Positions 1,141 through 57,793 of a DNA stretch of 64,000 nt are shown here, one piece after another (positions within the stretch are counted from its first letter, which is position 1; the number at the start of each line of letters is the position of its first letter). The stretch comes from Chiloscyllium plagiosum (taxonomy: Eukaryota), in the NCBI RefSeq assembly GCF_004010195.1, contig NC_057740.1:43269633-43333632 (forward strand), in the 5' to 3' direction. The translations under genes and the position numbers were made by a program. Under the pieces are notes generated by a model. It was not told where the DNA came from and searched no databases. It was given only the letters and a program-made list of their open reading frames with translations.

Positions 1141-2885
1141 CATTCAAGACACAACCCACGCCCTCCACCTCCTCCAAGACTTCAGTTTCCCCGGCCCCCA
1201 ACATTTCATCTTCACCATGGATATCCAGTCCCTCTAAACCTCCACCCGCCTCCAAGCCAGGGCCTCCAAGCCCTCCGTTTCTTCCTCTCCGGATGTCCCC
1301 AATAGTACCCTTCCACTGACACTCATTCATTTGGTTGAACTGGTCCTCAACAATTTCTCCTACGAATCCTCCCACATCCTCCAGACTAAATAGGTAGCCA
1401 TGGGAACCTGTATAGGCCCCAGCTATGCCTGTCTCTTTGTTGGCTATGTAGAACAGTCCATCTTCACCGGCACCACTCCCCACCTCATCCTCCGCTACAT
1501 TGATGACTGCATTGGCGCCACCTTGTGCTCCCGCGAGGAGATTGAGCAATTCATCAACTTCACCAACACATTCCACCCTGACCTTAAATTCACCTGGACC
1601 ATCTCTGACACCTCCCTCCCTTTCCTGGACCTCTCCATCTCCATTAACGACGACCGACTGGACACTGATTTTATTTTTTACAAACCCACCGACTCCCACA
1701 GCTACTTGGATTACACCTCTTCCCACCCTACCTCCTGCAAAAATGCCATCCTGTATTCCCAATTCCTCTGCCTCATCTGCTCCCAGGAGGACCAGTTCCA
1801 CAATAGAACACACCAGATGGCCTCCTTTTAAGCCCACAATTTCCCTTCCCAAGTGGTTGAAGATGCCCTCCAACGCATCTCATCCACATTCCACACCTCC
1901 GTTCTCAAACCCCACCCCTCCAACCGTAACAAGGACAGAACCCCCCTGGTCCTCAACTTCTACCTCACCAACCTTCGCATAAACCGCACCGATATTTCCA
2001 CCACCTCAAATGGATCCCACCAACACAGATAAATGTCCCTTCGCACCCCTTTCCGTTTTCCGCAAAGACCATTCCGTCCGTGACTACCTGGTCAGGTCCA
2101 CGCCCCCCTACAACCTACCCTCCCTTCCTGGCACCCTCCCCTACCACCGCAGGAACTGTAAAACCTGTGCCCACACCTCCTCCCTCACCTCCATCCAAGG
2201 CCCTAAAGGAGCCTTCCACATCCATCCCAGTTTCACGTGCATATCCACCAATATCATTTATTGTATCCGTTGCTCCCGATGGAGTCTCCTCTACATTGGG
2301 GAGACAGGATGCCCCCTTGCAGAGCGCTTTAGGGAACATCTCCGGGACACCCGCACCAATAAACCCCACCGCCCCGTGGCCCAACATTTCAACTCCGCCT
2401 CTCACTCTGCCGAGGACATGCAGGTCCTGGGCCTCCTCCACTGCCACTCCCACACCACCTGATGCCTGGGAGGAAGAACGCCTCATCTTCCGCCTCGGAA
2501 CACTTCAATCCCAGGGCATCAATGTGGACTTCACCAGTTCCCCAATTTCCCCTCCCCCAACCTTACCCCAGTTCCTAACTTCCAGCTCAGCACCACCCTC
2601 ATGACTTGTCCTACCTGCCAAACTCCCTTCCCATCCGTCCCATCCTCCCCTCTGACCTATCACCTCCATCCACCCATTGTACTCTTTGCTACCTTCTCCA
2701 CAGCACTCCCCCTCCCCCATTTCTCTCTCCAGCCTGGAGGCTCCCTGCCTCCATTCCTGATGAAGGGCTTTTGCCCGAAACGTCGATTTTCCTGCTCCTC
2801 GGATGCTGCCTGACCTGCTGTGCTTTTCCAGCACCGCTCTAATCTAGACTCTGGTTTCCAGCATCTGCAGTCCTCACTTTTGCCT
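1141..2885 (+). mobile_element. 5'-truncated Penelope-like retroelement (RT + GIY-YIG endonuclease + pLTR), frameshifted
   Basis: PLE RT motifs MGTCIGPSYACLF, LRYIDD, LPFLDL, FYKPTDSHSYLDYTSSHP. CKTC linker, then GIY-YIG NIIYCIRCSR..LYIGETG..LAERFREH. Flanked by the duplication GCCTCTTAA (1132-1140 / 2882-2890). Confidence 0.92.
2753..2788 (+). ncRNA. Minimal type-I hammerhead ribozyme motif (family A) in PLE pLTR
   Basis: ATTC-CTGATGA-A-GGGC-TTTT-GCCC-GAA-ACGT-C-GATT: core CUGAUGA/GAAA, 4-bp stem II, palindromic ACGU helix III, GUC cleavage triplet (after 2784), stem I AUUC/GAUU. Confidence 0.8.
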
Positions 2886-3228
2886 CTTAATGATCAAGGA
2901 GTTCGTCTTTGTGTTGAACCTCAGGAGATGGGAGAGTTACTAAATGAATAATTCGTCTCAGTTTTTACTGTGGAAAAAGAAATGGAGTCTGCAGAATGCA
3001 AAGAAATAAACTTTGATGTTTTAAAAACAGTTCACATTACAGAAGACAAAGTTCATAAGGTTTAGAGAATATAAAAGTTGATAAACTTCCGGAACATTGT
3101 GGGAAGTAAGGGAGGAAATTACGAGATCCCTTGCAGAAATATTTGCATCATCCATAACTATGGGTGAGGTGCCTGATGACTGGAGGGTGGCTAATGTTGT
3201 ATCTTTGTCAAGAAAAATTGTCAAGAGA

Positions 3229-3728
3229 NNNNNNNNNNNNNNNNNNNNNNNNNNNNNNNNNNNNNNNNNNNNNNNNNNNNNNNNNNNNNNNNNNNNNNNN
3301 NNNNNNNNNNNNNNNNNNNNNNNNNNNNNNNNNNNNNNNNNNNNNNNNNNNNNNNNNNNNNNNNNNNNNNNNNNNNNNNNNNNNNNNNNNNNNNNNNNNN
3401 NNNNNNNNNNNNNNNNNNNNNNNNNNNNNNNNNNNNNNNNNNNNNNNNNNNNNNNNNNNNNNNNNNNNNNNNNNNNNNNNNNNNNNNNNNNNNNNNNNNN
3501 NNNNNNNNNNNNNNNNNNNNNNNNNNNNNNNNNNNNNNNNNNNNNNNNNNNNNNNNNNNNNNNNNNNNNNNNNNNNNNNNNNNNNNNNNNNNNNNNNNNN
3601 NNNNNNNNNNNNNNNNNNNNNNNNNNNNNNNNNNNNNNNNNNNNNNNNNNNNNNNNNNNNNNNNNNNNNNNNNNNNNNNNNNNNNNNNNNNNNNNNNNNN
3701 NNNNNNNNNNNNNNNNNNNNNNNNNNNN
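3229..3728. other. Assembly gap, exactly 500 N (likely fixed-size scaffolding gap)
   Basis: Run of 500 N. The CR1 sequences on the two sides look like different subfamilies. Confidence 0.9.
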
Positions 3729-4950
3729 TAAAGTTAGCATGGTTTCATCAAGGGGAGGTCATGTCTGACAAATCTGCTAGAATTCTTTGAGGAAATAACA
3801 AGCAGGTTAGACCGAGAGCCAATGGATGTTATCTACCTGTGTTTCAAGAAGGCCTTTGTCACGGTGACTGAGTAAGATTAGGGCCCGTGGTGTTAGAGGC
3901 AAGGTGCTGGGCATGGACAGAAGCTGGGCTGTCTGGCATAAAGCAGAGTGGGGATAAAAGGGTCCTTCTCAGGATGGCAGCCGGTGACAAGTGGTGTTCC
4001 ACAAGGGTCAGTGTTGGAACTTTTCACTTTATACATGAACATCTAGATGGAACTGAGGGCCCTCTGGCTAAGTTTGCAGATTATACAAAGATAGGTAGAG
4101 GGACAAGTAGCATTAAGGAAGAGAGAGGCTGCAAAAGGTTCTGGACAGGTTAGAGTGGGCAAAGTGGCAGATGGAGTTCAATGTGGGAAAGTGTGAGGGG
4201 CTCATGCATTTTGGTAGGAAGAATAGAGGCATGGACTATTTTTCTAAATGGGAAGAAAATTCAGAAGTCTGATGTGCAAAGAGACGTGAGTTCTAGTCCA
4301 GGATTCTCTGCAGGTATACTTGCAGGTTGAGCCTGTAGTTAGGAAGGCAAATGCAATGATGGCATTTATTTGAGGACTTGAATGTAAAAGCAGGATTTAC
4401 TTGAGGCTCTGGACAGACCACATTTGGAGTATTGTGCACAGTTTTGGGTCCCGTATCTCAGGAAGGATGTGTTTTCAGAGGAGGTTCATGGTGATGGTCC
4501 CAGGAATGAAAAGCTTGACCGATTAGGAGCATTTGAGGACTTTGGGTTTGTACTGAGTTTTGAAGGATTTGGGTTTGTACTGAGTTTTGAAGGATTTGGG
4601 TTTGGGGGTGGGGTGGTGTAGAATCTAATTGAAACATTCAGTATACTGAATGGCCTGAACAGAGTGGATGTTGGGAAGATCTCCCCATTGGTCGGAGAGA
4701 CTAGGACCCAAGGGCACAGCCTTTGAGTAAAGGGAAGATCCTTTAGAATGGAGATAAGTGTGGTGAATCTATGGAATTCATTGCCACAGACAGCTGTGGA
4801 GGCCAGGTCATGGAGTATATTTAAGACTGAGATAGGTTCTTGAGTATCAAGGAGATCAAGGATTATGGGGTTTGAGAAACACATCAACCATAATTGAGCC
4901 TGTTCCACCATTCAATGGTCTGCCCTAATTTCTGCTCCTGTCTTATGGGA
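3729..4950 (+). mobile_element. CR1 LINE 3' RT fragment, decayed
   Basis: [46 protein letters not shown] and a CR1 3' tail. Internal 27-bp tandem duplication at about 4542-4600. Confidence 0.85.
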
Positions 4951-5525
4951 TGTGTGACAGGTGGGGGTGGGGAGGGATGGTTGGGGAACAGGTGGGTTGG
5001 GGGCACCTCTGGAAGTTCTGTCTTTGGGGGTGAGGTATCACAGCTTCATGCTGCTGATGTGCCCCCCCCCCTGATTATTGAGGGTGGTTTGGGTAGTATT
5101 GTTGGGGGGGGGTGGAGACTGAGACTCACTGGTTTCCATCGTCTTCCTCAGGAAGGAGAAGCAAAACGCTCTCCAGAATAAAACTGAAGCTGCAAAGTGT
5201 TAAATTGAAGATGGTGTACAGTGAGTCAGACATTTACAAGATTGTTGATTTGAGCTGATTAGTGTATAAAATTGGAGCAGTGCAACACTGTAGCTCAAGG
5301 GACATTACCCTCTCGCAGCCAGAATTAAACCTGCCTGGTTGGCAGCCATAAGATAAACAGCCAGGTTGTCTGGGATTTAAAGATGTTAATTGAGGATGTC
5401 AAACTGAGGGAAGAACAGGATGTGAATAACTGAGGTTAACAAAGGGGAACCTGAATGTTTTAAAGGGGTAGTGAATTTGTCAATGACCTGGATTTTATTG
5501 GGATGTTTGTGCATTTGGTCATTAA

Positions 5526-5657
<132 letters not shown>

Positions 5658-5742
5658 TAGGGGCTGTGGCTATTGGGTTCAGCTTGACAGCACAATGTTG
5701 GCTTTATCTGACTCCATTTGCATTGTTTAAATTTCCATTCAG

Positions 5743-5845
5743 AGTCCACTCTCCATCTGGTGCTGCGTCTGAGAGGTGGTGTTTTGGACCCGTCCCTCCG
5801 CATTCTCGCTCAGAAATATAACTGTGACAAGATGATCTGCCGCAA
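5743..5845 (+). CDS. UBA52: UBA52 coding exon (ubiquitin C-terminus + eL40 N-terminus)
   Basis: AG/GT-flanked 103-bp exon: [33 protein letters not shown](K). Phases are compatible with both neighbouring exons. Confidence 0.97.
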
Positions 5846-6329
5846 GTGAGTAGCTGGAGAGACTTGCTCAGTGGTGTGGTCATTTCTTTCCTTTGAAGAA
5901 AAAGGTTATGCAGGATTTTTGGGGGGGGGGGAGAAGAGAGAGGAGGGGGGGGGAAGAGTGGAGTGGAGGTGGTTGCCTAGCTGCAAGAGGAAAAGGAGGG
6001 GATTCACACAGCCCCTAACCTGCACTAACATGCTGTCACTTAGACTTCCACTGTCTTTTGTAAGGGCTGATATTTTTGACATTGCCTATGAGCAGCCTGG
6101 ACGGTTTTTTTAAGAAAAGGCTCTGCCTCCTTGTTTTGCATCCTTTCCTACATCCCTCGGGGCCCCCTCTAAAAATCCAGATGGTGACTTCATTGACTGA
6201 CTAATCCCCTAAAGTCCCTGACTTAGATCACACCTTGGGTTTTCCACTTGTGGGTGAATTCTGATTCAGTCTGTGCGATTCTCACTGTTCAGAAAATATT
6301 CAGCTGCCTATTATAAAAACAAAAATGGT

Positions 6330-6780
6330 CTTAGAGCACAAACAGACCCTTCAGTCCAACTCTGCCATGCCAGCCAGGTTTCCCAAATAAGTCCCATTTG
6401 CTTGTTTGTTCCATATCCCCCTAAACCTTTACCGTTCATGCACCTGTCCAGGTGTCTTTAAACTGAACCTGCATCTATCACTTTCTCTGGCAGTTCATTC
6501 ATATGAACCGTGCAATATGGAAAACATTGCCAGAGGTTTCTTTAAATCTTCCCTCTCACCTTAAACCTGCGCCCCCTAGATTTGAACTCTCCTGCCCCTG
6601 GGGAAAAGACCTTTACTGTTCACCTTGTATCACTCATAAGGTGACCTCTTTAAGGTCACCCCCTCAACCCCTTATGCTCCACTGGAAAAAGTCCCAGCCT
6701 ATTCAGCTCACCTTATCACACAAACCCTCCAGTCTTGGTGACGTGCTTGTCCATCTATTCTGCACCCTTTCCAATTGAAT
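6330..6780 (-). mobile_element. CR1 3' end fragment in UBA52 intron
   Basis: Similar to the other CR1 3' tails in the window (acagacccttcagtccaac...ccctctcaccttaaacct). Confidence 0.7.
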
Positions 6781-7333
6781 ATGGAGATCATGAAACAAAA
6801 CAGCAGGAAGTGTGAGAGTAACTCTGGTGTTTTGAGCTCAATATGACTCTAATTAGTCAAATATGACAAACTTCAAATGCGCAGTCAGACCTTAGTATCT
6901 GCATTTCTAAGTTTGTCTTTTGTGTTTCTTGAGTATCCTTCATTTGCCCAGTCTGAAATTGAGGGGTATCAAAAATGTCCCTCCCCAATCTCACTTAATA
7001 ATTTCTGACAGACATTTGAATTGGAAATCATATACTGTTGATGATCAGTACAGAGCAAGGTTGCAGAATGGGCAGTGGGAAAAGAATTTCTGCACAGAAA
7101 AATGGATTGTTTTGTTTTAAAACCAGAGGTCACAGATTGTGGAAGCTAAAGTCTGTGAAGTAGCAGAAGGAAAGGATCTAGCAGTACAAAGTCACCAGTC
7201 AAAGATGTGCTGCCAGTTAATGAAAGCTGTAGGCTTTAGTTTGGGAGAAACGACCACTCAGTGAGGAATGTAACAGGCTAAGCTTTGCTGCTTTTAATCT
7301 TTAACTGTCTGCTTTTCCCCCTATCCCAAACAG

Positions 7334-7427
7334 GTGCTATGCACGCCTCCACCCTCGTGCATCAAATTGTCGTAAAAAGAAATGTGGCCACACAAACAAC
7401 CTGCGCCCTAAGAAGAAGCTGAAGTAA
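7334..7427 (+). CDS. UBA52: UBA52 last coding exon (eL40 C-terminus)
   Basis: CAG acceptor at 7331-7333; [30 protein letters not shown] then TAA at 7425-7427; zinc-binding Cys residues intact. Confidence 0.97.
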
Positions 7428-7478
7428 CTTTTGGGGCAGTTGGTGTCCTCGGCATGTTTGTGTTTGAGCGAAATCTCC

Positions 7479-7484
7479 AATAAA
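7479..7484 (+). terminator. UBA52: UBA52 polyadenylation signal AATAAA
   Basis: AATAAA about 50 nt after the stop, followed by GT-rich sequence; a short 3' UTR is typical of ribosomal protein genes. Confidence 0.8.
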
Positions 7485-7661
7485 AGTGTGCGTTGCATCA
7501 CACTCAGTTGCTGTATCTTTGTGCATCAGTGTGACTGGGAGGGTGAGGAAGGAGGGTGGTGTGGGGGCTCTGGGCTATCCAGAATAAAAATTTCATGAGT
7601 CTGTTTTAACTAAATTGATTTTATTACAATCCAAAACTGAGACAAGTGACAACTAGGTTAA

Positions 7662-9050
7662 TATAGAGTCAGAGATGTACAGCATGGAAACAGACCCTTT
7701 GGTCCAACCTGTCCATGCCGACCAGATATCCCAACCCAATCCAGTCCCACCTGCCAGCACCTGGTCCATATCCCTCCAAACCCTTCCTATTCATATACCC
7801 ATCCAAATGCCTCTTAAATGTTGCAATTGTACCAGCCTTCACCACATCCTCTGGCAGCTCATTCCATACACGTACCACCCTCTGCATGAAGTTTCCCCTT
7901 TAATTCTCTCTCATATCTTTCCCCTCTCACCCTAAACCTATGCCCTTTAGTTTTGGATTCCCCGACCCCAGGGAAAAGACTGTTTATCCTATCCATGCCC
8001 CTCATAATTTTGTAAACCTCTATAAGGTCAACCCTCAGCTTCTGACGCTCCAGGGAAAACAGCTCCAGCCTGTTCAGCCTCTTCCTGTAGCTCAAATCCT
8101 CCAACCCTGGCAACATCCTTTTAAATCTTTTCTGAACCCTTTCAAGTTTCACATCTTTTCTGATGGGAAGGAGACCAGAATTGCATGTAATATTCCAACA
8201 GTGGCCTAACTAATGTCCTGTACAGCCACAACATGACCTCCCAACTCCTGTACTCAATACTCTGACCAATAAAGGAANNNNNNNNNNNNNNNNNNNNNNN
8301 NNNNNNNNNNNNNNNNNNNNNNNNNNNNNNNNNNNNNNNNNNNNNNNNNNNNNNNNNNNNNNNNNNNNNNNNNNNNNNNNNNNNNNNNNNNNNNNNNNNN
8401 NNNNNNNNNNNNNNNNNNNNNNNNNNNNNNNNNNNNNNNNNNNNNNNNNNNNNNNNNNNNNNNNNNNNNNNNNNNNNNNNNNNNNNNNNNNNNNNNNNNN
8501 NNNNNNNNNNNNNNNNTGAGATCTAACCTTGCTAACCAATCTCCCATGTGGAACCTTGTTGAACACCTTACTGAAGTCCGCATAGATCACATCTACCTCT
8601 CTGCCCTTATCAACCCTCTTTGATACTTCTTCAAAAATCGCAATCAAGTTTGTGAGACATGATTTCCCACGCACAAAGCCATGTTGACTATCCTGAATCA
8701 GTCCTTGCCTTTCCAAATGCATGTACATCCTGTCCCTCAGGATTCCCTCCAACAACTTGCCCACCACTGAGGTCAGGCTCACCGGTCTATAGTTCCATGG
8801 CTTGACTTTACCGCCCTTCTTAAACAGTAGCACCACGTTTGCCAATCTCCAGTCTTCCAGCATCTCACCTGTGACTATCAATGATACAAATATCTCAGCA
8901 AGAGGCCCAGAAATCACTTCTGTAGCTTCCCAGAGTTCTTGGATACACCTGATCAGGTCCTGGGGATTTAGCCACCTTTAACCATTTCAAGGCATCCAGC
9001 ACTTCCTCTGCTGTAATCTGGATATTTTGCAAGATGTCACTATTCTCCTA
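7662..9050 (-). mobile_element. CR1 LINE 3' half (RT), contains N gap 8278-8516
   Basis: DWRLANVV..FKKG, NYRPVSLTSVVGKLLE, QHGFVRGKSCLTNL, LERVQKRF and a CR1 tail ending near 7665. Confidence 0.9.
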
Positions 9051-9590: not shown

Positions 9591-9596
9591 TTTATT
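9591..9596 (-). terminator. Candidate polyA signal of the PAR4-like gene
   Basis: First AATAAA I found on the minus strand after the stop, about 670 nt downstream. Confidence 0.35.
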
Positions 9597-11756: not shown

Positions 11757-11887
11757 GTTAGCCCAGCATGGTGCTGGAAAGGCACAGCAGGTAAGGCAGC
11801 ATCCGAGGAGCAGGAACCTGCTGTGCTTTTCCAGTACCACTCTGATTTAAACTCTGGTTTCCAGCATTTGCAGTCCTCACTTTTGCC
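11757..11887 (+). mobile_element. Short fold-back Penelope pLTR insertion
   Basis: Inverted arms ggtgctggaaaggcacagcaggt / acctgctgtgcttttccagtacc, pLTR end gcagtcctcactttttgcc, and an 18-bp direct duplication TGCCACTTTCTCTGGAAG (11739-11756 / 11884-11901). Confidence 0.85.
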
Positions 11888-12685: not shown

Positions 12686-12880
12686 GAGAAAGTGAGGTCT
12701 GCAGATGCTGGAGATCAAAGTTGAAACTTTATTGCTGGAACAGCACAGCAGGTCAGGCAGCATCCAGGGAACAGGAGATTCGACGTTTCGGGCACAGGCA
12801 AGGGCCTGTGCCCGAAACGTCGAATCTCCTGTTCCCTGGATGCTGCCTGACCTGCTGTGCTGTTCCAGCAATAAAGTTTC
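12686..12880. mobile_element. Fold-back Penelope pLTR insertion with a perfect 77-bp inverted repeat
   Basis: Arms 12723-12799 and 12804-12880 with a 4-nt loop AAGG. 15-bp duplication TCTTCTACTAACGAG (12671-12685 / 12879-12893). Confidence 0.9.
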
Positions 12881-19066: not shown

Positions 19067-19605
19067 GATTTAGAGATGCCGGTGTTGGACTAGGGTGTTC
19101 AAAGTTAAGAATCACACATCACCAAGTTATAGTCCAACAGGTTTAATTGGAAGCACTAGCTTTCGGAGCGCCGCTCCATCATCAGGTGATTGTGGAGGAC
19201 ACAATTGTAAGACACAGAATTTATAGCAAAAGTTTACAGTGTGATGTAACTGAAATTATATATTGAAAAATACCTTGGTTGTCAGTTGAGTCTCTCATCT
19301 GTTCGAATACCATGATAGCTTCACTTCTTTCATGTGTAAATCACAAAACCTTTTTAAAACGTTACATTCTCAGGTTAACTGTAACATTTGGTGTCAGCCC
19401 AGACAATATTTTGAAGGTGTTAGCCCCCTGTGTTCCCTGTCTATGCCATAATGTTTAGACTGATTCTAATCTAAAAAGTGAGATAAGAGTCTTACATGGA
19501 TTCATGCAGTTTTTGAGCAAAGTATAATGTAACTCTGCAAGTACAAATTCACCCCACAAACATATATGTATAATGTGTGCATGTGGGTCTGTGTGTGCAC
19601 ACATA
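19067..19605 (-). mobile_element. Penelope-type pLTR, family B, nested in CR1
   Basis: Same terminus (gattt.gagatgccggtgttggact) and body as 57594-57793; contains a hammerhead motif. Confidence 0.7.
19154..19188 (-). ncRNA. Minimal hammerhead motif (family B), sense within the PAR4-like intron
   Basis: Minus strand CAC-CTGATGA-T-GGAGC-GGC-GCTCC-GAA-AGCT-A-GTG. Confidence 0.78.
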
Positions 19606-20835
19606 TGCAGCTCTGCAGCTTATCTATGTCTCTCTATAACATAAAACATCCTTCAGCAGTATTCACAACTCCATCGACCTTAGTGTCATCTGCAAATTTA
19701 TGAACCCACCCTTCTCTGCCCCCATCCAGGTCATTTATAAAAATGACAAACAGCAGTGCTCCCAAAACAGATCCTTGTGGTACACCACTAGTCACTGAAC
19801 TCCAAGATGAACAATTCCTATCAATCATCACCCTCTGTCTTCTTTCAGCTAGCCAACTTCTGATTCAAACTGCTAAATCACCCTCAATCCCGTGCCTCCG
19901 TATTTTGTTCCATAGCCTACCGTGGGGAACCTTATCAAACACCTTACTGAAATCCATATACACCACATCAACCGCTTTACCCTCATCCACCTGTTTGGTC
20001 ACCTCCTCAAAAAACTCAGTAAGGTTTGTGAGGCACAACCTACCTTCACAAAACCATGTTGACTATCCCTAATCAGCTTATTCCTTTCTAGGTGATTATA
20101 AACCCTATCTCTTATAACCTTTTCCAACACTTTACCACAACTGAAGTAAAGCTCATGGGTCTAGAGTTATCAGGGTTGTCTCTACTCCCCTCCTTGAACA
20201 AGGGAACATTTGCTCTCCTCCAGTCTCCTGGCACCGTTCCTGTAGACAATGATAACAAAGATCAAATCCACAGGCTCTGCAATCTCCTCTCTGGCTTCCC
20301 AGAGAATCCGAGGATAAATCCCATCTGGCCCAGGGGACCTATTTATTTTCACACTTTGCAGAATTGCTAACATCTCCTCCTTGTGAATCTGAATCCCATC
20401 TAGTCTAGTCGCCTGTAAATCTGTATTCTCCTCAATAACATTGTTTTTTCCCTGGGTGAATACTGATGAAAAATATTCATTTAGCGCTTCCCCTCCACGC
20501 ACAGCTTCACATTCCTGTCCTTGATTGGCCCTAATCTTACTCTTGTCATCCTTTTATTCCTGTTATACCGACAGAAAGGCATCTGGATGGGTATATGAAT
20601 AAGAAGGGTTTAGAGGGATATGGGCCAAGTGCTGGCAAATGGGACTAGATTAGTTTAGGATATCTGGTCAGCATGGACAAGTTGGACTGAAAGGTCTGTT
20701 TCCGTGCTGTAGATCTTGATGACTCTAAGTCAGGAGTGTTATGGAATACTCCCCACTTGCCTGGATGGGTGTGGATCCAACAACATTCAAGAAGCCATCC
20801 AGGATAAAGCAGCCCGCTTGATTGGTACCACAACC

Positions 20836-23830: not shown

Positions 23831-24518
23831 ATAGCTCTTGGGACTTTTTTCAAATTATACAGTTCATCTCTTTCTATAAACTTTGGATAATTAACTTGAT
23901 TTCAAGAAGCTTACATTTAAAAAGATTATTCTGAGTCATTGCCATTGCAGAGTATAAAGTGTTCATTGCAAATTTATGAAGAATAGACTGGCCCCAAATT
24001 AAAGGATTGTCTGGCTTTGAGATGTGTGGAGCAGTCTGACTGTAACAGCCTTCAGCAAGATGGCTGCAGGTAGAGAAATTCTCAGTCTCTGCCTATCGAG
24101 AGTCGCCAAAGGCTCAAATCCAGGAACAGAAGTCCATAATATTTAGAAGTTGGAGCCAGCCATTTGTCACCTTGAATCTGTTCCAATATTCACTACAATC
24201 ATGGCTGATCCTCTACATGATCTTCACCTTGCCATTCAGCTCCACATCCCTTGATTCCCCTGAGACTAAAGATCCAGTAAATGATCCTGAACGTCCACTT
24301 GCTGCTACTTTAACACTCTGCTCTGTTCCCAGGCCAACATCCCTGGCTCAGGGTTGCTGCAGTGCTCCAGAGAAGCTAAGTGCAAGTGGGAGGAACACCA
24401 CCTTGTTTTCTGCATAGAGACCCTGCAACCTTCTGCACCCAATATCAAGTTCAATAATTTCAGTTCTGAGGTAGGGTCACTCATCTGAAAATATTAACTT
24501 TGATTTCTCTCCAGTGAT

Positions 24519-24800
24519 GGTGGCACAGTGGTTAGCACTGCTGCCTCACAGCGCCAGGGACCTGGGTTCAATTCCAGCCTCGGGCGACTGTCTGTGTGGA
24601 GTTTGCACATTCTCCCCGTGTCTGCGTGGGTTTCCTCCGGGTGCTCCGGTTTCCTCCCACAGTCCAAAGATGTGCGGGTTAGGTGAATTGGCCATGCTAA
24701 ATGTAGGGGAATGGGTCTGGGTGGGTTGCTCTTCGGAGGGTCAGTGTGGACTTGTTGGGTCGAAGGGCCTGTTTCCACACTGTAAGTAATCTAATCTAAT
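24519..24800 (+). mobile_element. HE1-like tRNA-derived V-SINE
   Basis: tRNA head (tggcacagtggttagcactgctgcctcacagcgccagggacctgggttcaattcc), V-domain tgtgtggagtttgcacattctccccgtgtctgcgtgggtttcctccgg, CR1-like tail and (AATCT)n end. Confidence 0.88.
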
Positions 24801-25589
24801 GCTGCCAGACCTGCTGAACCTTTCCATCAGTTTCTGTTTTTGTTTCAATAATTTTAAGGCTGAGCACCTTCTTCCATGTTGTTAGCCCAACTCCCACAAA
24901 CCAAGCCCTGTCATCACATGGGTTGCTCCCACAATCAATCCATAGTCAGCCGCTAATAGTCCCCATTCTGACCTTTACTCACTCCTTTGTTTATCCAAAT
25001 GCTATTCTATCTCTGGGCTCTATCTTGACCTATACTTTCCTTCTCTCTGTCTCCCCCCTACCTTCAGCAAACTTTTCCTAGCTACCATCCATCCTGAAGG
25101 AGTATCACCAGACGCAAAACATTAACTGTTTTTCTCTCACCACAGATGCTTCCAGACCTGCTGAGTTTCTCCAGCAATTTCTGTTTTGATCCACTGAGCT
25201 CTGACAGATAAAAATCAATGACTGAGCATCTCTGCAGCAGAAAAATCCAAAGTCCCTTTGAGATGGTACAGGAGCATTGACAGATTTCTGCTGTGCATCT
25301 TGTAAATGGTGCACACTGCTGCTCCTGAGCATTGGTGGTGGAGGAAGAGGATGCAGTTTCAACCAGATGGACTGCTTTATCCTGGATGGTGGCAAGTTTC
25401 TCAAACTTCTGTTTTCTGTAAAGATCTCAAACATATGAATTACAAGTAAAAGTGGGCCATTTGGACCCTTGAGCATGTTCCACAATTTGATAAGATTGTG
25501 ATTGTCTTTCTATACCTAATCCCACATTGCATCAACTCCTGATAACTTTAGATTCTATTGCCAAACAAAACTCCATCTACCTTCTCCTT

Positions 25590-37239: not shown

Positions 37240-38360
37240 AAGTACTGCAGATACTGGAAATCTGAAACAAAGACAGAAATTTCTGGAGAACTCAGCAGGT
37301 CTGCCAGCATCTCTGGAGAGAAACATCAATATTTCAGGTCCAGTGACCCTCAGGACATTTCTGATGTAGAGTCACTGGATTTGAAATGTTAACTCTGCTT
37401 TTTCTCCATGCATGTTGCCAGGCTTGCTGTATTCTCCAGCAATTTCTGCACTTGGTCTGATGATGCCACCTTCCACTGGACTGCCTTCAACACTTCCTCC
37501 TTTATCCTCAAGCAAGGATTCACCCTCACTGTGGTTGTCAGAGTCCTCAACCATTGTCTGATTCACCTCCTACACAACCCTTCCCTCCTTTCCACCCCAC
37601 CTGTCTCCACATTCGAAGGAATGATTGCCATTTCTGACACCTCCAGCAAGATATCAAATACACCTTCTCCTCCCCTCCATTGTCAGCATTCCACAGAGAC
37701 TGTTCCCTTTCTGATACCCCCCTGTCACTCGTCTAGCACTCCTCAGACTTCCTCCCTTCCCCATGGCATCTTTCCATGCAATTGCAGCAAGTGTAACTCT
37801 TGCGTATTCACCTCCTCATGCCTCACTTTCCAAAACCCCAGTTGCAACTTCCAGGTGAAGCAGCATTTTATTTGAGCTTCTACTGCATTCACCTCTCACG
37901 ATGTAGTTTGCTTTACATTAGTGAGACCAAATGGAGCCTGAGTGACTGTTTTGCAGAACACTTCCACTCTGCCAGTTGCTTGCTGCTGTTTCATTAAGTC
38001 ACCTTGCTCTGGTGCTAACATCCAACCAGTGAAGCTCAACACAAACTCAAGGACCAGCATCTCATTTTCCACTGAGGCACTTCACAGGCTCAAGGACCCA
38101 ACATTGAGTCTCACAACTTCAGAGCATGACCTCTGACCTCCAGTTTGGTTACAACTCAATCACTCCTTTAGCCCAATGGTGTTCCTTTGGTTTTTTGCTG
38201 TGGACATTTCATAATCTGTTCCAATCGCTTCTCCTCCTACTCTGTCAATAACATGAAAGACAGCATTTCCCAACTCCTTCCATTTCTGAAAAAATGTCAT
38301 CTTGGAACTGAAACATGAACTCAGTTTCTCTTTTTACAGATGCTGCCAATGTGTTGAGTT
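37240..38360 (+). mobile_element. Old Penelope-like element with inverted pLTR at its left end
   Basis: Decayed FPCNCSKCNSC and YCIHLSRCSLLYISETKW..CFAEH. Inverted ends ctggagaactcagcagg / gctgtattctccagcaatttc; eroded hammerhead cores at about 37361 and 38286. Confidence 0.7.
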
Positions 38361-40114
38361 TAGAGTCATAGAGTCATAGAGATGTACAGCATGGAAACAG
38401 ACCCTTCAGTCCAACCTGTCCACACCGACCAGATATCCCAACCCAATCTAGTCCCACCTGCAGCAGACAGTTCGGTTAGGGACAATGTTTTCACACAGAG
38501 AGTGGTGCGTATGTGGAATGAGCTGCTAGAGGAAGTGGTGGAGGTCGGCACAGTTGCTGGTTTTATTTCAAGGGGCTTGTCAATCTGGATTATGTGTTCA
38601 AATTCTTTGAGCCCATGATTTTCTGGCTGAGAGGAATGAGTGCTCCTCCGGAGACATGGCTGGCAGTTTTAACCCTCAATGCACACTTTTGCACTGAAAC
38701 TGAGTTGAGTAGATGGGAAGCTGGTCATTGTTGGCAGATACATGGGAGCAGCTGTACAACAGTTACAGATCTGCTCTTTCACACAGCTTTATACACAGCT
38801 GTTGCAGGCTCGTTGATGATGGGGAGATGGAAGATGTAAATTCTCACACAAATTCCTCAACTTCCACAGAAGTATTCCAACCAAAGTGTTTACACCCTTT
38901 CTGTAAATCTCCACCTCCTGCTGCTGCAGTCAAATGGCAGCTGAAGTAACAAAAAGGCAGTGAGCCGTCTGGTGAAATGTTTCTCAGCATCAGAATGGCA
39001 GGAGGTCCCCATTCAGGACTGAACAGTTTCCAAGCACAGAAATGAGAGCCTGAAAGTTGCAGCTGTCTGCAACAGAGCAGATGGAAAATGAATAACAGCA
39101 GGGAACTGTGGCCCAAGGAGCAAGGTTCAAGAGCTGGCACTGTATTGAGGGGAGACTTAACCAGGATTGAAGCATGGTGACGAGGTTATTGCAGAGAAAC
39201 TATTTCAACTGATGGCGAGTTGGGTGGGATTGGGGGATGTCGTTAGGAAATGGCCAGAGCAAAAGGAAATCACCTTCTAATTGGAGCCAGGCTGCTCAGG
39301 GATGATGTCAGGAAGCACTTCCTCATACAGACCGGACTGGAAATCTGGCATTCACTCAGACTGGGGTTAGTTGGTTTTTGTCAGGAGTGAGACTGAAATT
39401 TTGTTGGGTTAGAATCACAAAATGGTTATAGTACAGAAAGAGGCCATTTAGCCATTGAATCTGTGCAAACCCTCCCAGGGAGCAGTGCCATTTACCATCA
39501 GTTCCCCGTAACCCTTCTCAAATAACTGTCTAATTCACTCAGGAGGGTCTCAATGGAAGCTGCCTCTGTCACACACTCAGGGGATGTGTTCCACACCCAA
39601 GCCACTCACTGTACGGAAATGTGTTTCCTCATGACCACAGTCTCCAGCACAAATCCAACCTGGAAAATTACCCGTCTGTCATTCTGTCCAGTGAGCAAGC
39701 AGCAACATGATGGAGGGGAAAGTTGACAGTGCTCAGCAAGAAGCTGCTCACTGACAGCCAGTTTGGGATCTGCCATTCACACAGCTCCTTCCCTCAGCAC
39801 AGCTTTCATCCAAACTGGGACATAGACCTGGATTCCAGATGGGAGGTGAAAGTGACGACCCTTGAAATCGAGTCAGGAGTGTGATAAAATACTCCCCACC
39901 TGCCTGGATGAGTGCAGCTCCAACAACACAAAAAAATCTTGACACCATCGAGGACAAAGCCCATTTGAATGGCACCAGACCCATTCTCTCCATGACCAAT
40001 GCTCAGTTGCAGCGCTGTGTACTATCTACAAGATGCACGTGTAGAAATTCATCAAAGATTATTAGACAGCATCCAAACCCACAAAAGCTTCTACCTAGAA
40101 GAACAAAGGCAGTA

Positions 40115-40677
40115 TCTCTGGGATACAAACACTAAACAACCTCACTGCCCCGTGGCCGAACACTTTGACTCCCCGTCCCACTCTGCCAAGGACATGCAGG
40201 TCCTGGGCCTCGTCCATCGCAGCTCCCAAACCACCCAGCACCTGGAGGAAGAACGCCTCATCTTCTGCCTCAGGTCCCTCCAACCACATGGGATCAATGT
40301 GGATTCCACCAGTTTCCCTATTCCCCCCCTCCTCCTGCACCTTAACCCAGATCCAACCCTCCAACTCAGCACTGCCCTCTTCAACTGTCCTACCTGTCCA
40401 TCTTCCTTCCCATCTATCCACTCCACCCTCCTCTCTGACCTATCACCATCATCCCCCCACCTTCATGTACCTATCACAATACCAGCTATTTTCCCCTAAC
40501 CCCACCCTCTCCCATTTATCTCTCAGCCTCCTTGGCCCAGCCCCTCATTCCTGATGAAGGGCTTATTCTCAAAGTGTTGATCCTCCTGCTCCTCAGATGC
40601 TGCCTGACCTGCTGTGCTTTTTCAGCACCACACTTTTCAACTCTGATCTCTAGCACCTTCAGTCCTCACTTTCTCCT
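40115..40677 (+). mobile_element. Penelope 3' fragment (GIY-YIG C-terminus + pLTR, eroded hammerhead at 40551)
   Basis: PVAEHFDSPSHSAKDMQVLGL..LEEERLIF.L.SLQPHGINVD; nested in the L2-like LINE spanning 39870-41590. Confidence 0.85.
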
Positions 40678-42298: not shown

Positions 42299-42334
42299 AA
42301 TCGACGTTTCGGGCAAAAGCCCTTCATCAGGAAT
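42299..42334 (-). ncRNA. Minimal hammerhead motif (family A)
   Basis: Minus strand ATTC-CTGATGA-A-GGGC-TTTT-GCCC-GAA-ACGT-C-GATT. Confidence 0.8.
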
Positions 42335-43738: not shown

Positions 43739-43774
43739 ATTCCTGATGAAGGGCTTTTGCCCGAAACGTCGATT
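43739..43774 (+). ncRNA. Minimal hammerhead motif (family A)
   Basis: ATTC-CTGATGA-A-GGGC-TTTT-GCCC-GAA-ACGT-C-GATT. Confidence 0.8.
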
Positions 43775-44539
43775 TCGCTGCTCCTTGGATGCTGCCTGAC
43801 CTGCTGTGCTCTTCTAGTACCACTAATCCAGAATCTGGTTTCCAGCATCTGTAGTCATTGTTCATACCTCGTTGTTTCTAATTCAGTGACTGATGGCGCT
43901 AACGGGTTTCTCTCCACAGACACTGCCAGACTGGCTGTTTTGCTATCAGGTCTCCAGTACCCGCAGTCCTCTATATCCCCAGGCACACAGCGAGCAGTGA
44001 AAGCGGTGACCCAAGTATGATCTGTTCCTGGGAACAGCACAGACGGACCCAGTGAGGGTGGCCCGGTTTTGCATTCTCAGTTTCACTGACAGAGGATTCT
44101 GAAATCAATCAGGGCGAGCAAATAAAGTTAGCAAAAAAAACGTCCGAGGCAGAGATGTTGATACATGTAACAGGAAAAATAATGCGGGAAATGTTCAGCC
44201 CAGACCATGTTCAGCCGCCTCCTTCTCGCATTCCTGAATGTGTGTGTGAATGTGAGAGAGAGGGTTCTCAGACTCTCACTCTGACTCTGTGTGTGTCAGA
44301 GAGAGAGCTAAGACTCTGCCCTGACTGTGAGAGAGAGAGCCTGGACCTCTCTCTCTCCCGACTCTGTCTGAGTGTCTAAGAGAGACTCCGGTCCCGCTCT
44401 GTGTGTGTGTGTGTGTGTGAGAGAGAGGGGGGGGTTCTCAGACTCTTCCTGTGTGTGAGAGAGCCAAGACCCCACTGTCTCTGCTTCTTTCTCTCAAACT
44501 GTGTGTGTCTGTGTGTGTGTGTGTGAGAGAGAGCTGGGA

Positions 44540-47500
44540 GCCGCTGCCTCTCTCTCTCTCCTGACTGTGTGTGTGTCTCTCTCTCCTGGTTGTTTGTTTG
44601 TGTCTGTGAGAATGTCGCCCTCTCGCCTGAGTGTGTGTCTGTCTGTGAGAGTGTCTCTCTCTCCTGAAACTGCCTCGCACTCTCTCCTGACTGTGTGTGA
44701 AAGTGTCTCTCCCTCCCTCTCCTGACTGTGTCTGTGAGAGTGTCTCTCCCTCTCTCTCCTGACTGTGTGTCTGTGAGAGTGTCTCTCCTGACTGTGTGTC
44801 TGAGAGTATCTCTCCTGACCATGTGTCTGTGAGAATCTCTCCTGACCGTGTGTCTGTGAGTATCTCTCCCTGTCTCTCCTGACTGTGTGTCTGTGAGATT
44901 ATCTCTCCTGACTGTGTGTCTGTGAAAGTGTCTCTCCCTCCCTCTCCTGACTGTGTGTCTGTGAGAGTATCTCTCCCTCCCTCTCCTGACCGTGTGTCTG
45001 TGAGTATCTCTCCCTGTCTCTCCTGACTGTGTGTCTGTGAGATTATCTCTCCTGACTGTGTGTCTGTGAGAGTATCTCTCCCTCTCTCTACTGACCGTGT
45101 GTCTGTGAGAGTATCTCTCCTGACCGTGTGCCTGTGAGAGTGTCTCTCCCTCTCTCTCTCCTGACTGTGTGTCTGTGAGAGTAGCTCTCCTGACTGTGTG
45201 TCTGTGAGAGTATCTCTCCCTCTCTCTCCCGACTGTGTGTCTGTGGGAGTGTCTCTCCCCCTCTCTCCCGACTGTGTGTCTGTGAGAGTAGCTCTCCCAC
45301 TGTCTCCTGACTGTGTCTGTGGGAGTGTCTCTCCCTCTCTCTCCTGACTGTGTGTCTGTGAGAGTGTCTCTCCCTCCCTCTCTCTCCTGTGTGTCTGTGA
45401 GAGTGTCTCTCCCTCTCTCTCCTGACTGTCTGTGAGAGTGTCTCTCCCTCTCCCTCCTGACTGTGTGTATGTGAGATATCTCTCCCTCTCTCTCCTGACG
45501 TATGTGAGATATCTCTCCCTCTCTCTCCTGACTGTGTGTCTGTGAGAGTGTCTCTCCCTCTCTCTCCTGACTGTGTGTCTGTGAGAGTGTCTCTCCCTCT
45601 GTCTCCTAACTGTTTGTCTGTGAGAGTGTCTCTCCCTCTCTCTCCTGACTGTGTGTCTGTGAGAGTGTCTCTCCCTCTCCCTCCTGACCGTGTGTCTGTG
45701 AGAGTGTCTCTCCCTCTCTCTCCTGACTGTGTGCCTGTGAGAGTATCTCTCTCTCTCTCCTGTGTGTCTGTGAGAGTGTCTTTCTCTCTCCTGACTGTGT
45801 GTCTGTGAGTGTCTCTCCCTCTCTCTCCTGACTGTGTGTCTGTGAGAGTGTCTCTCCCTCTCTCTCCTAACTGTGTGTCTGTGAGAGTGTCTCTCCCTCT
45901 CTCTCCTGACTGTGTGTCTGTGAGAGTCTCTCCCTCTCTCTCCTGACCGTGTGCCTGTGAGAGTGTCTCTCCCTATCTCTCCTGACTGTGTGTCTGTGAG
46001 AGTGTCTCTCCCTCTCCTGACTGTGTGTCTGTGAGAGTGTCTCTCCCTCTCTCCCCTGTCTGTGTGTCTGTGAGAGTGTCTCTCCCTCTCTCTCCTGACC
46101 GTGTGCCTCTGAGAGTGTCTCTCCCTCTCTCTCGTGACTGTGTGTCTGTGAGAGTGTCTCTCCCTCTCTCCCCTGACTGTGTGTCTGTGAGAGTGTCTCT
46201 CCCTCTCTCTCCTGACTGTGTGTCTGTGAGAGTGTCTCTCCCTCTCTCCCCTGACTGTGTGTCTGTGAGAGTATCTCTCCCTCTCTCTCATGACTGTGTG
46301 TCTGTGAGAGTATCTCTCTCTCTCTCTCCTGACTGTGTGTCTGTGAGAGTATCTCTCCCTCTCTCTCCTGACTGTGTGTCTGTGAGAGTGTCTCTCCCTC
46401 TCTCCAGACTGTGTGTCTGTGAGAGTGTCTCTCCCTCTCTCTCCTGACTGTGTGTCTGTGAGAGTGTCTCTCCCTCTCTCTCCTGACTGTGTGTCTGTGA
46501 GAGTGTCTCTCCCTCTCTCCCCTGACTGTGTGTCTGTGAGAGTGTCTCTCCCTCTCTCTCCTGACTGTGTGTCTGTGAGAGTATCTCTCCCTCTCTCTCC
46601 TGACTGTGTGTCTGTGAGTGTCTCTCTCTCTCTCTCCTGACTGTGTGTCTGTGAGAGTGTCTCTCCCTCTCTCTCCTGACTGTGTGTCTGTGAGAGTGTC
46701 TCTCCCTCTCTCCCCTGACTGTGTCTGTGAGAGTATCTCTCCCTCTCTCTCCTGACTGTGTGTCTGTGAGTGTCTCTCTCTCTCTCTCCTGACTGTGTGT
46801 CTGTGAGAGTGTCTCTCCGTCTCTCTCCTGACTGTGTGTCTGTGAGAGTGTCTCTCCCTCTCTCTCCTGACTGTGTGTATGTGAGAGAGTCTCTCCCTCT
46901 CTCCCCTGACTGTGTGTCTGTGAGAGTGTCTCTCCCTCTCTCTCCTGACTGTGTGTCTGTGAGAGTGTCTCTCCCTCTCTCCCCTGACTGTGTGTCTGTG
47001 AGAGTATCTCTCCCTCTCTCTCCTGACTGTGTGTCTGTGAGTGTCTCTCTCTCTCTCTCCTGACTGTGTGTCTGTGAGAGTGTCTCTCCGTCTCTCTCCT
47101 GACTGTGTGTCTGTGAGAGTGTCTCTCCCTCTCTCTCCTGACTGTGTGTATGTGAGAGAGTCTCTCCCTCTCTCCCCTGACTGTGTGTCTGTGAGAGTAT
47201 CTCTCCCTCTCTCTCCTGACTGTGAGTCTGTGAGAGAGTCTCTCCCTCTCTCTCCTGACTGTGTGTCTGTGAGAGTCTTTCCCTCTCTCTCCTGACTGTG
47301 TGTCTGTGAGTGTCTCTCCCTCTCTCTCCTGACTGTGTGTCTGTGAGAGAGTCTTTCCCTCTCTCTCCTGACTGTGTCTGTGAGAGTATCTCTCTCTCTC
47401 CTGACTGTGTGTCTGTGAGTGTCTCTCCCTCTCTCTCCTGACTGTGTCTGTGAGAGTGTCTCTCCCTCTCTCTCCTGACTGTGTGTCTGTGAGAGTGTCT

Positions 47501-48225: not shown

Positions 48226-48235
48226 GTGAGTAACA

Positions 48236-48590
48236 CGGGCAGTGGGCTCTGGGCAGTGGGCTGTGGTCTCTGGGCATGGCTCTGGGCAGTGGGCTCTGGG
48301 CAGTGGGCACTAGGCATGGCTCTGGGCTGTGGGCACTGGGCTGTGGGCACTGGGCATGGCACTGGGCAGTGGGCTCTGGGCAGTGGGCTCTGGGCAGTGG
48401 GCTCTGGGTATGGCTCTGGGCAGTGGGCAGCTCTGGGCAGTGGGCTCTGGGCTGTGGGCTCTGGGCAGTGGGCATGGCACTGGGCTCTGGGCAGTGGGCT
48501 CTGGGCTGTGGGTATGGCTCTGGGCATGGCACTGAGCTGTGGGCACTAGGCATGGCACTGGGCTGTGGGCACTGGGCTGTGGGCACTGGA
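48236..48590 (+). repeat. G-rich 7-bp repeat (TGGGCAG/TGGGCTC/TGGGCAC)
   Basis: About 50 heptamer units starting 10 nt into SHC2 intron 1. Confidence 0.92.
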
Positions 48591-49269
48591 TGCTACACTC
48601 AGCCCCCATGCAGCTGCTGGGGTCGGAGGACGGGGGCTACTCTCAAGCCCTACCCAGTCTCCTGTCCATTCACTGCCCACAACAAGCTGGGGTGGACTAT
48701 AGCCGGGTCCCTGCACAGGGGAGGCCAGGGGCACAGGGCAGGTCTCAAACCAGTTGTGTTGTTGGGAACTCAGTCATTGTTGGAATGTGTCAGACAGGGG
48801 CGTATCATTGAGAAAGAGGAAGTAATAGACTCGTTAGACCCTGACATCTGCTGTGGTCATGCTATTAGAATCTATAACTGAATTACTTTATGAGAATGTT
48901 ATTAGCATCTATAATATAGGAGAGAGATGTTGATCACTGACAGAAGCTGCTGCAGTTTTGAGAAAGAGGGAGTTTGTAAAGGTTAGGTCTCTCCCAAACT
49001 TGATTGAAGTTTTGCAGGAAGCAACAGGTGGAGTGTTCAGGTAAATATTGCTGGATGCAGTTTGTATGAACGTCAAGAAAGCATTTAATTCAATAATGTT
49101 GAATGTGTACAGCAGAGAAACAGGCAATTCAGCCCATACCATGGAGTAGATGCTTGTAGGGATGTTCCTTCCCATAGAGGTCTCTGGAACTATGGGGACT
49201 AGCAGAGAGTAGATCTGTTGGTTATGGGATCAATTAGATCTGTCTAACACTTGCTGTTTATGATGTTTG

Positions 49270-51546: not shown

Positions 51547-51731
51547 GGAGAAAGTGAGGTCTGCAGATGCTGGAGATCAGAGCTTAAAAATGTGTTGCTG
51601 GAAAAGTGCAGCAGGTCAGGCAGCATCAAAGGAGCAGGAGAATCGTCGAGAATAAGCCCGAAACGTCGATTCTCCTGTTCCTTTGATGCTGCCTGACCTG
51701 CTGCGCTTTTCCAGCAACACATTTTTAAGCC
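51547..51731. mobile_element. Fold-back Penelope pLTR insertion
   Basis: About 65-bp inverted arms across 51582-51730 with the junction at gcccgaaacgtc. 14-bp duplication ATGGT(C/G)TCAAGCTT (51533-51546 / 51732-51745). Confidence 0.85.
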
Positions 51732-51916: not shown

Positions 51917-52355
51917 ACCTTCCAACCCAAATCCTAGCCACCCGACAACTGGAGGCAGAAGGCCTCATCTTCCACCTTGGCACCCTCCAACCGAAGGAAT
52001 CAATGTGGATTTCACCAGTTTCCTCATCTCCCCTCCCCCCACCTTATCTGAGATCCAACCCTCCAACTCGGCACCACCCTCTTGAACTGTCCTACCTGTC
52101 CATCTTCCTTCCCACCCTATCCACTCCATCCTTCACTCCAACCTATCACAATCATCTCCACCTTCACCCATCTATTGCAATTCTAGCCAATTTCACCCAG
52201 CCCCAATCCCCTCCTATTTATCTCTCAGCCCCCTTGCCACACCACCCCCCTGACACATTCCTGATGAAGAGTTTATGCTTGAAATGTTGACTCTCCTGCT
52301 CCTCGGATGCTGCCAGACTGTCTGTGCTTTTCCAGCGCTGTACGTTTTGACACTT
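51917..52355 (+). mobile_element. Penelope 3' fragment with CpG-decayed hammerhead (52257-52292)
   Basis: LEAEGLIFHLGTLQPKESMW.. followed by a pLTR. 9-bp duplication GTCCAGTTG (51906-51914 / 52356-52364). Confidence 0.8.
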
Positions 52356-52864
52356 GTCCAGTTGAATGTCAGATGTATCCCCCAGAATTTTGATAATGGA
52401 GGATTTAGCAGTGTCAAGGGACAATGGTTCAATTGTCTCTTTTTATAAATAGTCTTTGACTGGCATTTATGGCATGAATACTATTTGCTACTTCTCAGCC
52501 CAAGCTGGATATTGTCCATAAACTGAAATTGCTGGAAAAACTCAGTAGGTCAGGCAGCACTTGTGGAGTGAAAACAGTTAACGGTTTAGGTCCAGTGACC
52601 CTTCTTCAGATTCTTCCAGATTTTGTCCAGTTGTTGTTGCATTTGGACACAATCTGCTTCAGTACTCGAGGAGCTGCGAATGGTGCTGAATATTGCCCAA
52701 TCATCGGTGAACATCCCCACTTCTGACCTTATGATGGAGGGAAGGTCATTGATAAAGCAGCTGAGGATGGCTGGGCCAAGAATGCTATCCTGAGGGACTC
52801 CTGCAGAGACTGGAGCTGAAATGACTGACCTCCAACAACCACAACCATTTTTCTATGTACTAGT

Positions 52865-57131: not shown

Positions 57132-57202
57132 TATATGGGATGTATTGAAGTGGTCAAATCAATGAGATCCCTTGACTTCAACACGAGAACACAGGTCACA
57201 AG
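57132..57202 (+). CDS. SHC2: SHC2 exon 2 (PTB domain)
   Basis: AG/GT, 71 bp, [23 protein letters not shown](R). Confidence 0.96.
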
Positions 57203-57593
57203 GTAAGATGGTGTTGTATATTATTGACAGAATCGCCATAGGATTGAATCTAGTTATGGTCATTGACTGCTACTGAAGTGAAGATGATTAGAAGCCAAAG
57301 GAGTCGAAATGTAAATGCAATCAATATTCAGTTTCACTCTCAAACATGGTGTTTCTCAAAGGTAGCGCTTGCTTATTTGATTAGACTGCTTTCTTTTTGG
57401 GAATCAGTCCCATAAACATTGACACCTTCCCAATATGACATCCAAATTGAGAGGTTATGGATTCTCCTTTTTATGGTACTCCTCCTTATCTCCCTTTCTC
57501 CCCCTCTCTGTTTTTCTCTCACTTCCTTCCTTTTGGAGTCTGTATCTGTTTCTCTGCCTTGCCCCCTGAACAATGTGTGTTGTAAGTGACTGT

Positions 57594-57793
57594 GATTCGG
57601 AGATGCTGGTGTTGGACTGGGGTGTACAAAGTTAAAAATCACACAACACCAGGTTAGAGTCCAACAGGTTTAATTGGAAGCACACTAGCTTTCGGAGTGA
57701 CAATCACCTGATGAAGGAGCGTCGCTCCGAAAGCTAGTGTGCTTCCAGTTAAACCTGTTGGACTATAACCTGGTGTTGTGTGATTTTTAACTT
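57594..57793. mobile_element. Fold-back pLTR insertion, family B
   Basis: Inverted arms 57629-57697 / 57725-57793. Duplication GTAAGTGACTGT (57582-57593 / 57795-57806). Confidence 0.85.
57705..57739 (+). ncRNA. Minimal hammerhead motif (family B), sense within SHC2 intron 2
   Basis: CAC-CTGATGA-A-GGAGC-GTC-GCTCC-GAA-AGCT-A-GTG; CUA triplet, predicted cut after 57736. Confidence 0.78.

Follow-up and report, generated by a model that had tools for sequence, protein, structure and literature searches.

Minimal hammerhead motifs in Penelope-like elements of Chiloscyllium plagiosum and their possible place at the two ends of the element RNA

A 64,000-nucleotide stretch of the Chiloscyllium plagiosum genome (contig NC_057740.1 of assembly GCF_004010195.1, positions 43,269,633 to 43,333,632; hereafter the window) contains several copies of a short motif with the layout of a hammerhead ribozyme, which raises the question of what carries these motifs, how they pair, and where they lie on the RNA of their carriers. 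The initial annotation had described three families of minimal hammerheads spread by the pseudo-long terminal repeats (pseudo-LTRs) of Penelope-like elements, and had proposed that different palindromes in helix III restrict dimer partners to the same family. We consider it probable that the motifs are minimal type-I hammerheads in the pseudo-LTRs of Neptune-type elements, likely forming a slow dimer in cis between the two ends of one transcript, and that no palindrome code is at work. The observations that carry this reading are the motif and its structure, its link to reverse transcriptase (RT) and endonuclease genes, its copy numbers, an element with the motif at both ends, a pile-up of 5' ends immediately upstream of the core, and poly(A) addition after the motif of family B.

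A structural descriptor that fixes the hammerhead core, together with a core search, was run on the window and on the genome. The window gave six matches, namely the five motifs annotated as intact, all with complete cores and predicted cut sites at the expected places (Table 1), and a decayed family A copy at 52261 (+), versus none in each of 30 dinucleotide shuffles. The genome search for which the initial annotation had called gave 71 matches in an unbiased sample of 120 stretches picked irrespective of the motif (1,140,079 bases), versus 0, 0 and 0 in three shuffles. Exact patterns of two subfamilies of family A matched the genome 18,175 and 47,036 times, those of families B and C 16,880 and 102 times, and reversed controls 0 times; the motif copies in the genome number tens of thousands. 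Many copies are dead, with all core bases present in 58 of 141 family A tails of the sample (40 also with a palindrome) and in 19 of 44 family B tails (17 also with a palindrome). A scan of the window with Rfam covariance models found no hammerhead family among 19 matches at E values up to 10. The microRNA matches of that scan were rejected, as they lay under the gathering scores and their sequences were inverted element ends.

At least six families are present where three had been described: a group A with several loop variants, B, C, D, E and F. The core CUGANGA...GAAA..UH, which the descriptor pre-selects, is present in the five window copies and the six family majorities, and the catalytic bases are kept in the majority sequence of every family. 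An extra base follows A9, and the G10.1-C11.1 pair is present as G-C in seven and G-U in five of 12 chosen copies. The tails of A, C, E and F are alike (31-35 of 46 positions identical) and represent one lineage, with B and D outside it. Family C is real, with 102 exact copies of one pattern genome-wide, although its copy at 52609 (-) lacks G12 and the palindrome and hence is not intact. The four eroded window copies of family C align to C copies with scores of 59-110 versus shuffled maxima of 23-33, the real copies being scored against the whole panel and the shuffles against 10 panel copies. The A/U variation of the extra base reported for family B was not borne out: A stands there in 98 of 100 listed B copies, and the U of the 19185 copy is private, 1121 of 1181 RNA reads differing from this copy at that base. 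Family D does carry U as the extra base, and has a helix II of 7 bp and a tail unrelated to those of the other families.

The helices are supported by changes on both sides of the pairs. Among 12 hand-picked A, F, C and E copies, 90% of the cells pair, six of ten pairs change on both sides, and 19 cells carry two-sided changes, a number reached by 0 of 500 shuffles; sliding the helix partners lowers pairing to 13-47%. It should be noted that the shuffle ignores the relatedness of the copies and that the families were found via the core, so that these figures support the fold and do not measure selection. Helix I of family A, described as fully paired, has the majority form C-G, U-A, U·U, A-U: the third pair is U·U in 119 and U-A in 14 of 147 copies, it is unpaired in six of the 12 chosen copies, and full pairing is confined to the CUGU-loop subfamily. 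An older A subfamily, in which the second pair of helix II is A-U (6 of 229 copies, p 5e-4), was not counted as evidence because the non-partner control gave p 0.004, so age may explain it. The view that the motifs are structured RNAs in Penelope-like pseudo-LTRs, with compensatory changes in their helices, was thus upheld. The compensatory changes are true inside the A/C/E/F lineage; the comparison of A with B spans two distant lineages rather than one alignment, and shows the same fold in both. Two side observations concern the fold. As a monomer bearing U at core position 7, the A motif at 2753-2788 takes up an inactive UGAUG/CGUCG helix in the folding model (-11.4 kcal/mol); this may be an off state. 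Identical E-like motif copies with an AUAU palindrome and a helix II mismatch occupy eight of 100 rows listed (e.g., C1:17220150), and are probably one decayed copy spread inside another repeat.

The A and B motifs sit in the 3' pseudo-LTRs of two distant Penelope-like lineages, whose RTs are 28% identical over 166 residues. Of 34 A-type endonuclease matches, 23 had an A motif downstream, six had no motif and five had one of other families, and of 11 B-type matches nine had a B motif, two of them from overlapping loci; for family C the link is one clear case, locus L051. In the window, the motif at 2757 comes after a broken RT, which the Pfam scan left unrecognised, and a remnant of a Cys linker and GIY-YIG endonuclease. 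A CX2-5CxxC linker between the RT and the C-terminal GIY-YIG domain was found in carriers of A (L086, Cx4CxxC, intact), B (L162) and C (L051). This linker is given as a feature of Neptune elements (PMC8557442), and by it the carriers are provisionally placed as Neptune-type. A decayed, full-length B element at locus L162 carries two motifs, one at either end and 3732 bp apart, in the order TATA, motif, AAUAAA, tail, ATG, RT, CxxC, endonuclease, motif. The window copies are solo, inverted or linked to an open reading frame (ORF), whereas retrozymes form tandem arrays, and so they do not class as retrozymes; the non-long-terminal-repeat retrozymes share with them type-I hammerheads from Penelope pseudo-LTRs (PMC7229834). 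Mosaics of the A and B lineages also occur: an A motif comes after a B endonuclease end at L004 1033+, a B motif is attached to an inverted A end at L034 1501-, and at L021/L022 two inverted B ends flank a piece of A-type RT.

Copy ends were called by aligning each copy to longer natural copies, with positions counted from C3. The 5' ends concentrated at -10 to -1 (71 of 198 in A, 23 of 59 in B and 29 of 55 in C), while the next bin upstream held six, four and two, respectively. Three A copies start at the cut site (+28), and a start of copies at that site was rejected, given the pile-up 1-10 nt ahead of the core. Long copies have a TATA-like box at -40/-38 (B) or -37 to -35 (A), approximately 30-35 nt before the 5' edge, and initiator-like words in which the A lies at -8 (B) or -4 (A and C); both are named by their likeness to consensus TATA and initiator sequences. 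The TATA offsets -40 and -38 were seen in 20 of 81 B copies, and 54 of the 81 had none.

The copying of an RNA cap is expected to leave an extra G. At B junctions, G stood ahead of the start A in 77 of 100 listed non-templated cases counted by eye, and among 30 fetched B loci an inverted copy was the template for the junction base in 13, while 12 of the other 17 were G (p 1.7e-4). Inverted junctions were frequent, with 58 of 168 copies in A, 33 of 83 in B and 10 of 51 in C. The 3' ends were bimodal, near +90 and +125, which matches the two internal RT starts and optional tail described for the Anolis Poseidon element (Frangieh et al. 2024, PMC11167929).

RNA reads came from one single-cell poly(A) run whose species label is that of the best DNA matches, a library that sees no cut products. 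A further run gave no aligned reads, and none of the listed sequences that contain the A stretch is recorded as RNA. The 2,943 reads aligned to the B copy at 19185 have 88% likeness to it and therefore come from many B copies. Poly-T loose ends were found in 653 and 420 of them at 19127 and 19130, 12-15 nt past AUUAAA, and an AWUAAA signal lies at +35 to +44 in 60 of 81 B copies. Read depth continues over the cut site, which more than 1000 polyadenylated reads cross uncut; this shows that uncut RNA exists, not what fraction is cut. The 5' edge of the copies is also seen in reads at the A copy, where loose ends and strand-switch joints lie at 2752-2753 and depth climbs from ~60 to 400-580 at 2752. 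Separately, B ends, both at 19127-19147 (-) and genome-wide, carry a working poly(A) signal at which ~1,070 reads in 2% of the run end; the B reads may be host transcripts ending in a B copy, in which case B copies could terminate host transcripts through their own poly(A) signals.

From these data we infer a start site, a dimer and cleavage, which could be arranged as follows. A TATA/initiator promoter of the pseudo-LTR would place the first base of the RNA within the 5' strand of the upstream motif's helix I, limiting this helix to ~4 bp in A and C, and the RNA would end after the second, downstream motif. The full transcript would then hold two motifs of the same family, able to pair in cis with helix I swapped and the palindromes paired. 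Reverse transcription would start internally, ~90-130 nt past the core, and run to the cap, leaving many solo and inverted pieces of 100-140 bp, the inverted ones arising when the new strand snaps back or switches template. As the copies retain the entire motif, the template was uncut. Cutting would likely be minor or protein-assisted, and dispensable for insertion, as in the Anolis element, whose cleavage is protein-assisted and dispensable in vitro (PMC11167929).

In retroviruses and LTR retrotransposons, the R region lies between the start and poly(A) sites and occurs at both ends of the RNA, and a short complementary DNA (cDNA) is made up to the cap. We put forward, as an evenly balanced proposal, that the Neptune pseudo-LTR has a similar U3-R-U5-like layout, in which the ribozyme would be the terminal redundancy joining both RNA ends and the short pieces would be strong-stop-like cDNAs of capped, uncut RNA. 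The pseudo-LTR would be R-like at most and not an LTR, as Penelope-like elements have no primer-binding site or integrase and prime at nicked target DNA. If this layout is true, the tens of thousands of solo and inverted motifs of 100-140 bp are a fossil record of the replication cycle.

Several points weigh against the reading of a promoter-driven transcript with a motif at each end. The transcription start is inferred from DNA junctions, and the 5' pile-up could be inflated by upstream subfamilies absent from the reference panel. The excess of G is weak at B junctions without any inverted copy (6 of 11, p 0.04) and at A junctions (G 31 and A 26 of 100 by eye, p 0.04), and nine of ten G junctions in the 30 fetched A loci are inverted. 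An upstream motif was in range at one of 12 B RT loci, and that one was L162, the query itself. In A, 13 of 157 copies had AWUAAA near +75, and C almost lacked it; none of the six loose ends listed at the A copy was a poly(A) end; and neither the B nor the A copy showed a pile-up of read starts in the RNA data. The A1 monomer and unconstrained cofold minima are inactive folds, an outcome to be expected when the folding model ignores the core, and the core conservation of families found through a core-fixing descriptor is partly built in. Furthermore, the R-like layout is not universal, because Penelope of D. virilis has a TATA-less, internal promoter (PMC2377424).

The inverted junctions could instead mean that the 5' pile-up marks an RT stop or snap-back at the motif structure, with the motif serving as a protein-binding or template-switch element and cleavage incidental. 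Their very high frequency in all three families agrees with this, as do the junction Gs templated by an inverted copy at 11 of the 30 fetched B loci and the fact that the main substrate is uncut RNA in PMC11167929. However, the edge lies just outside the structure and, in three families, coincides with initiator-like words 30-35 nt past TATA-like boxes, the G excess persists at the non-templated junctions (12 of 17), and the catalytic bases are retained in all six family majorities; we therefore regard an RT stop as unlikely.

The proposal of the initial annotation, in which the palindromes diverged so that motifs dimerise in trans with their own family only, is very unlikely in our judgement. 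The motif has no monomer helix III, and the palindromic 15.2-16.2 positions read ACGU or AGCU in 50 of the 71 sampled matches and CpG-decay forms in 18 (ACGU 39, AGCU 11, ACAU 12, AUGU 6, other 3). The palindrome is indeed fixed by lineage, as six A-type bodies with AGCU were found in the genome versus 47,036 matches for one A subfamily pattern, and an A+B dimer, predicted to keep two of four helix III pairs and to have a broken helix I, is predicted not to form. To that extent a restriction of partners stands. It is not specific to families, however: the majorities have ACGU in A, C and D, decayed ACAU in E and F (six copies each) and AGCU in B alone, so that no rule of one palindrome per family was found, and A+C and A+D dimers are predicted to form all four helix III pairs, but helix I would lack its closing pair in one or both directions. 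The sharing of one palindrome by several families leaves the code unsupported. Only four states are open to a two-base Watson-Crick palindrome, and palindromes of A and U alone (AUAU/AAUU) gave just 2,016 genome matches, most of them in A-type bodies, which we interpret as double CpG decay, with no separate AUAU or AAUU family of any size. No selection test favours orthogonality, and several palindromes per genome have already been published (PMC4209133). On the predicted dimers, helix I, which would also be strand-swapped, separates families better than the palindrome does. Pairing in cis requires no code, and partner choice is explained more simply by two motifs on one transcript, as in L162, together with helix I.

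Efficient cutting in vivo into unit-length RNA that is circularised and copied as a circle (the model of PMC4209133) would suit the conserved core and helices and the tandem layout of L162, yet it is improbable, since the copies retain the whole motif and do not begin at the cut site, more than 1000 polyadenylated reads cover the uncut B site (in a library blind to cut products), and a circle predicts neither the -4/-8 edge nor the extra G.

The motif class is already known (Cervera and De la Peña 2014, PMC4209133), and the families as first described add examples only. The motifs resemble the metazoan minimal hammerheads of that paper in their type-I layout, extra base after A9, G10.1-C11.1 pair, palindromic 15.2-16.2 positions and short helix I, and also in their pseudo-LTR placement, mostly solo copies, opposite-strand pairs and several families per genome. 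According to the same source, four to eight families occur per genome (six in coelacanth, eight in Xenopus), CG, GC and UA palindromes and multiple families per genome appear in Figs S2-S4, and a shrimp motif has CAC/GUG and a cut after A, as in family B. Its tables, as available, include no cartilaginous fish; its counts of 4,000-9,000 motifs lie below the 18,175 and 16,880 matches of two exact patterns here; and the placement of the motif relative to start and poly(A) sites, given here, is absent from its available text. The palindromic, very short stem III is shared with Penelope hammerheads that cleave as dimers (reviewed in PMC6765202). Like the Anolis Poseidon element (PMC11167929), the present elements are vertebrate elements with a pseudo-LTR hammerhead, internal RT starts with an optional tail, uncut RNA as the main template and no RNA ends at the cut site. 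They differ in that the Anolis element belongs to the Poseidon clade and its ORF starts within the motif, whereas family B has its ATG ~118 nt past C3 and a Neptune-type linker, and in that protein-assisted cleavage has been demonstrated for the Anolis element, whereas the present motifs are known from sequence and reads. One chondrichthyan genome screened for tandem retrozymes had them (bioRxiv 10.64898/2026.07.22.740005). Our literature searches on shark hammerheads, on start and poly(A) placement and on mixed-family dimers found nothing relevant.

What is new here is that the 5' ends lie 1-10 nt before the core and ~30 nt past a TATA-like box, that an extra G is frequent there in B, and that poly(A) addition occurs past the uncut motif of B. 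The role of Penelope hammerheads has been called unclear (PMC8557442). Both ends of the RNA can be tentatively placed from the junctions and RNA reads, which also point to the copying of uncut RNA and to a dimer partner at the opposite end of one molecule; an R-like placement would supply exact positions and account for the short helix I.

Table 1 Features of the window, with copies of families D, E and F from other loci. Positions are those of the window unless a locus is named.
Feature	Position	Strand	Remarks
Broken Penelope-like RT remnant, A lineage	1115..1840	+	Internal stops; YIDD motif; no RT Pfam match
Cys linker (CxxC) and GIY-YIG endonuclease remnant, putatively Neptune-type	1983..2462	+	Pfam PF01541, E 1.6e-4, 22.3 bits, cut-off 22.6
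Family A minimal hammerhead	2753..2788	+	C3 2757; predicted cut 2784/2785; 298 nt past endonuclease remnant
Putative transcription start of family A copy	2753	+	RNA read depth up ~8-fold at 2752
Perfect hairpin of two inverted, 5'-cut A-lineage ends	12765..12838		Similar one at 51621-51691
AUUAAA poly(A) signal (19147-19142) and poly(A) addition (~19130 and 19127)	19127..19147	-	Poly-T loose ends of RNA reads
Family B hammerhead	19154..19193	-	C3 19185; predicted cut 19157/19156; helix I 3 bp; private U as extra base
TATAAA box	19220..19225	-	Begins 32 nt ahead of putative start A at 19193
Eroded family C copy	24461..24525	+
Eroded family C copy	25094..25188	+
Back-to-back inverted pair of eroded family C copies (37357-, 37361+)	37300..37453	both
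Eroded family C copy	38285..38361	+
Decayed family A motif	40547..40582	+	Missed by the initial annotation; 316 nt past endonuclease remnant
Family A hammerhead	42299..42334	-	C3 42330; predicted cut 42303/42302; 322 nt past endonuclease C-terminal remnant 42729-42652
Family A hammerhead	43739..43774	+	C3 43743; predicted cut 43770/43771; inverted partner of 42330 copy across assembly gap
Decayed A-lineage motif, core complete	52257..52292	+	Missed by the initial annotation
Family C copy	52575..52613	-	C3 52609; G12 and palindrome damaged
Family B hammerhead	57700..57739	+	C3 57708; predicted cut 57736/57737; begins at putative transcription start
Context of 57708 B copy	57638..57785		Hairpin; copy preceded by G and inverted partial copy
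Family D copies	L083 1632, L123 522, L072 2143	-, +, +
Family E copies	L111 1542, L020 870	+, +
Family F copy	L083 5894	-

Other features of the window were also recorded. Long, near-perfect hairpins of two inverted element ends occur at 11768-11840 and 37329-37389 as well as at the three places listed in Table 1 (12765-12838, 51621-51691 and 57638-57785), and such hairpins could give small RNAs if transcribed. An assembly gap at 42730-43684 sits between two inverted A ends, an arrangement known to break short-read assemblies of Penelope-like elements. Tandem arrays lie at 44300-47000 (units of ~39 nt), 30800-31700 (~37 nt) and 48230-48600 (~14 nt). Among many dispersed repeats there are broken pieces of RTs of the long interspersed nuclear element type at 19500-20050 (-) and 52700-52800 (-), which we take to be CR1-like, and the tRNA-like start of a short interspersed nuclear element near 24520.

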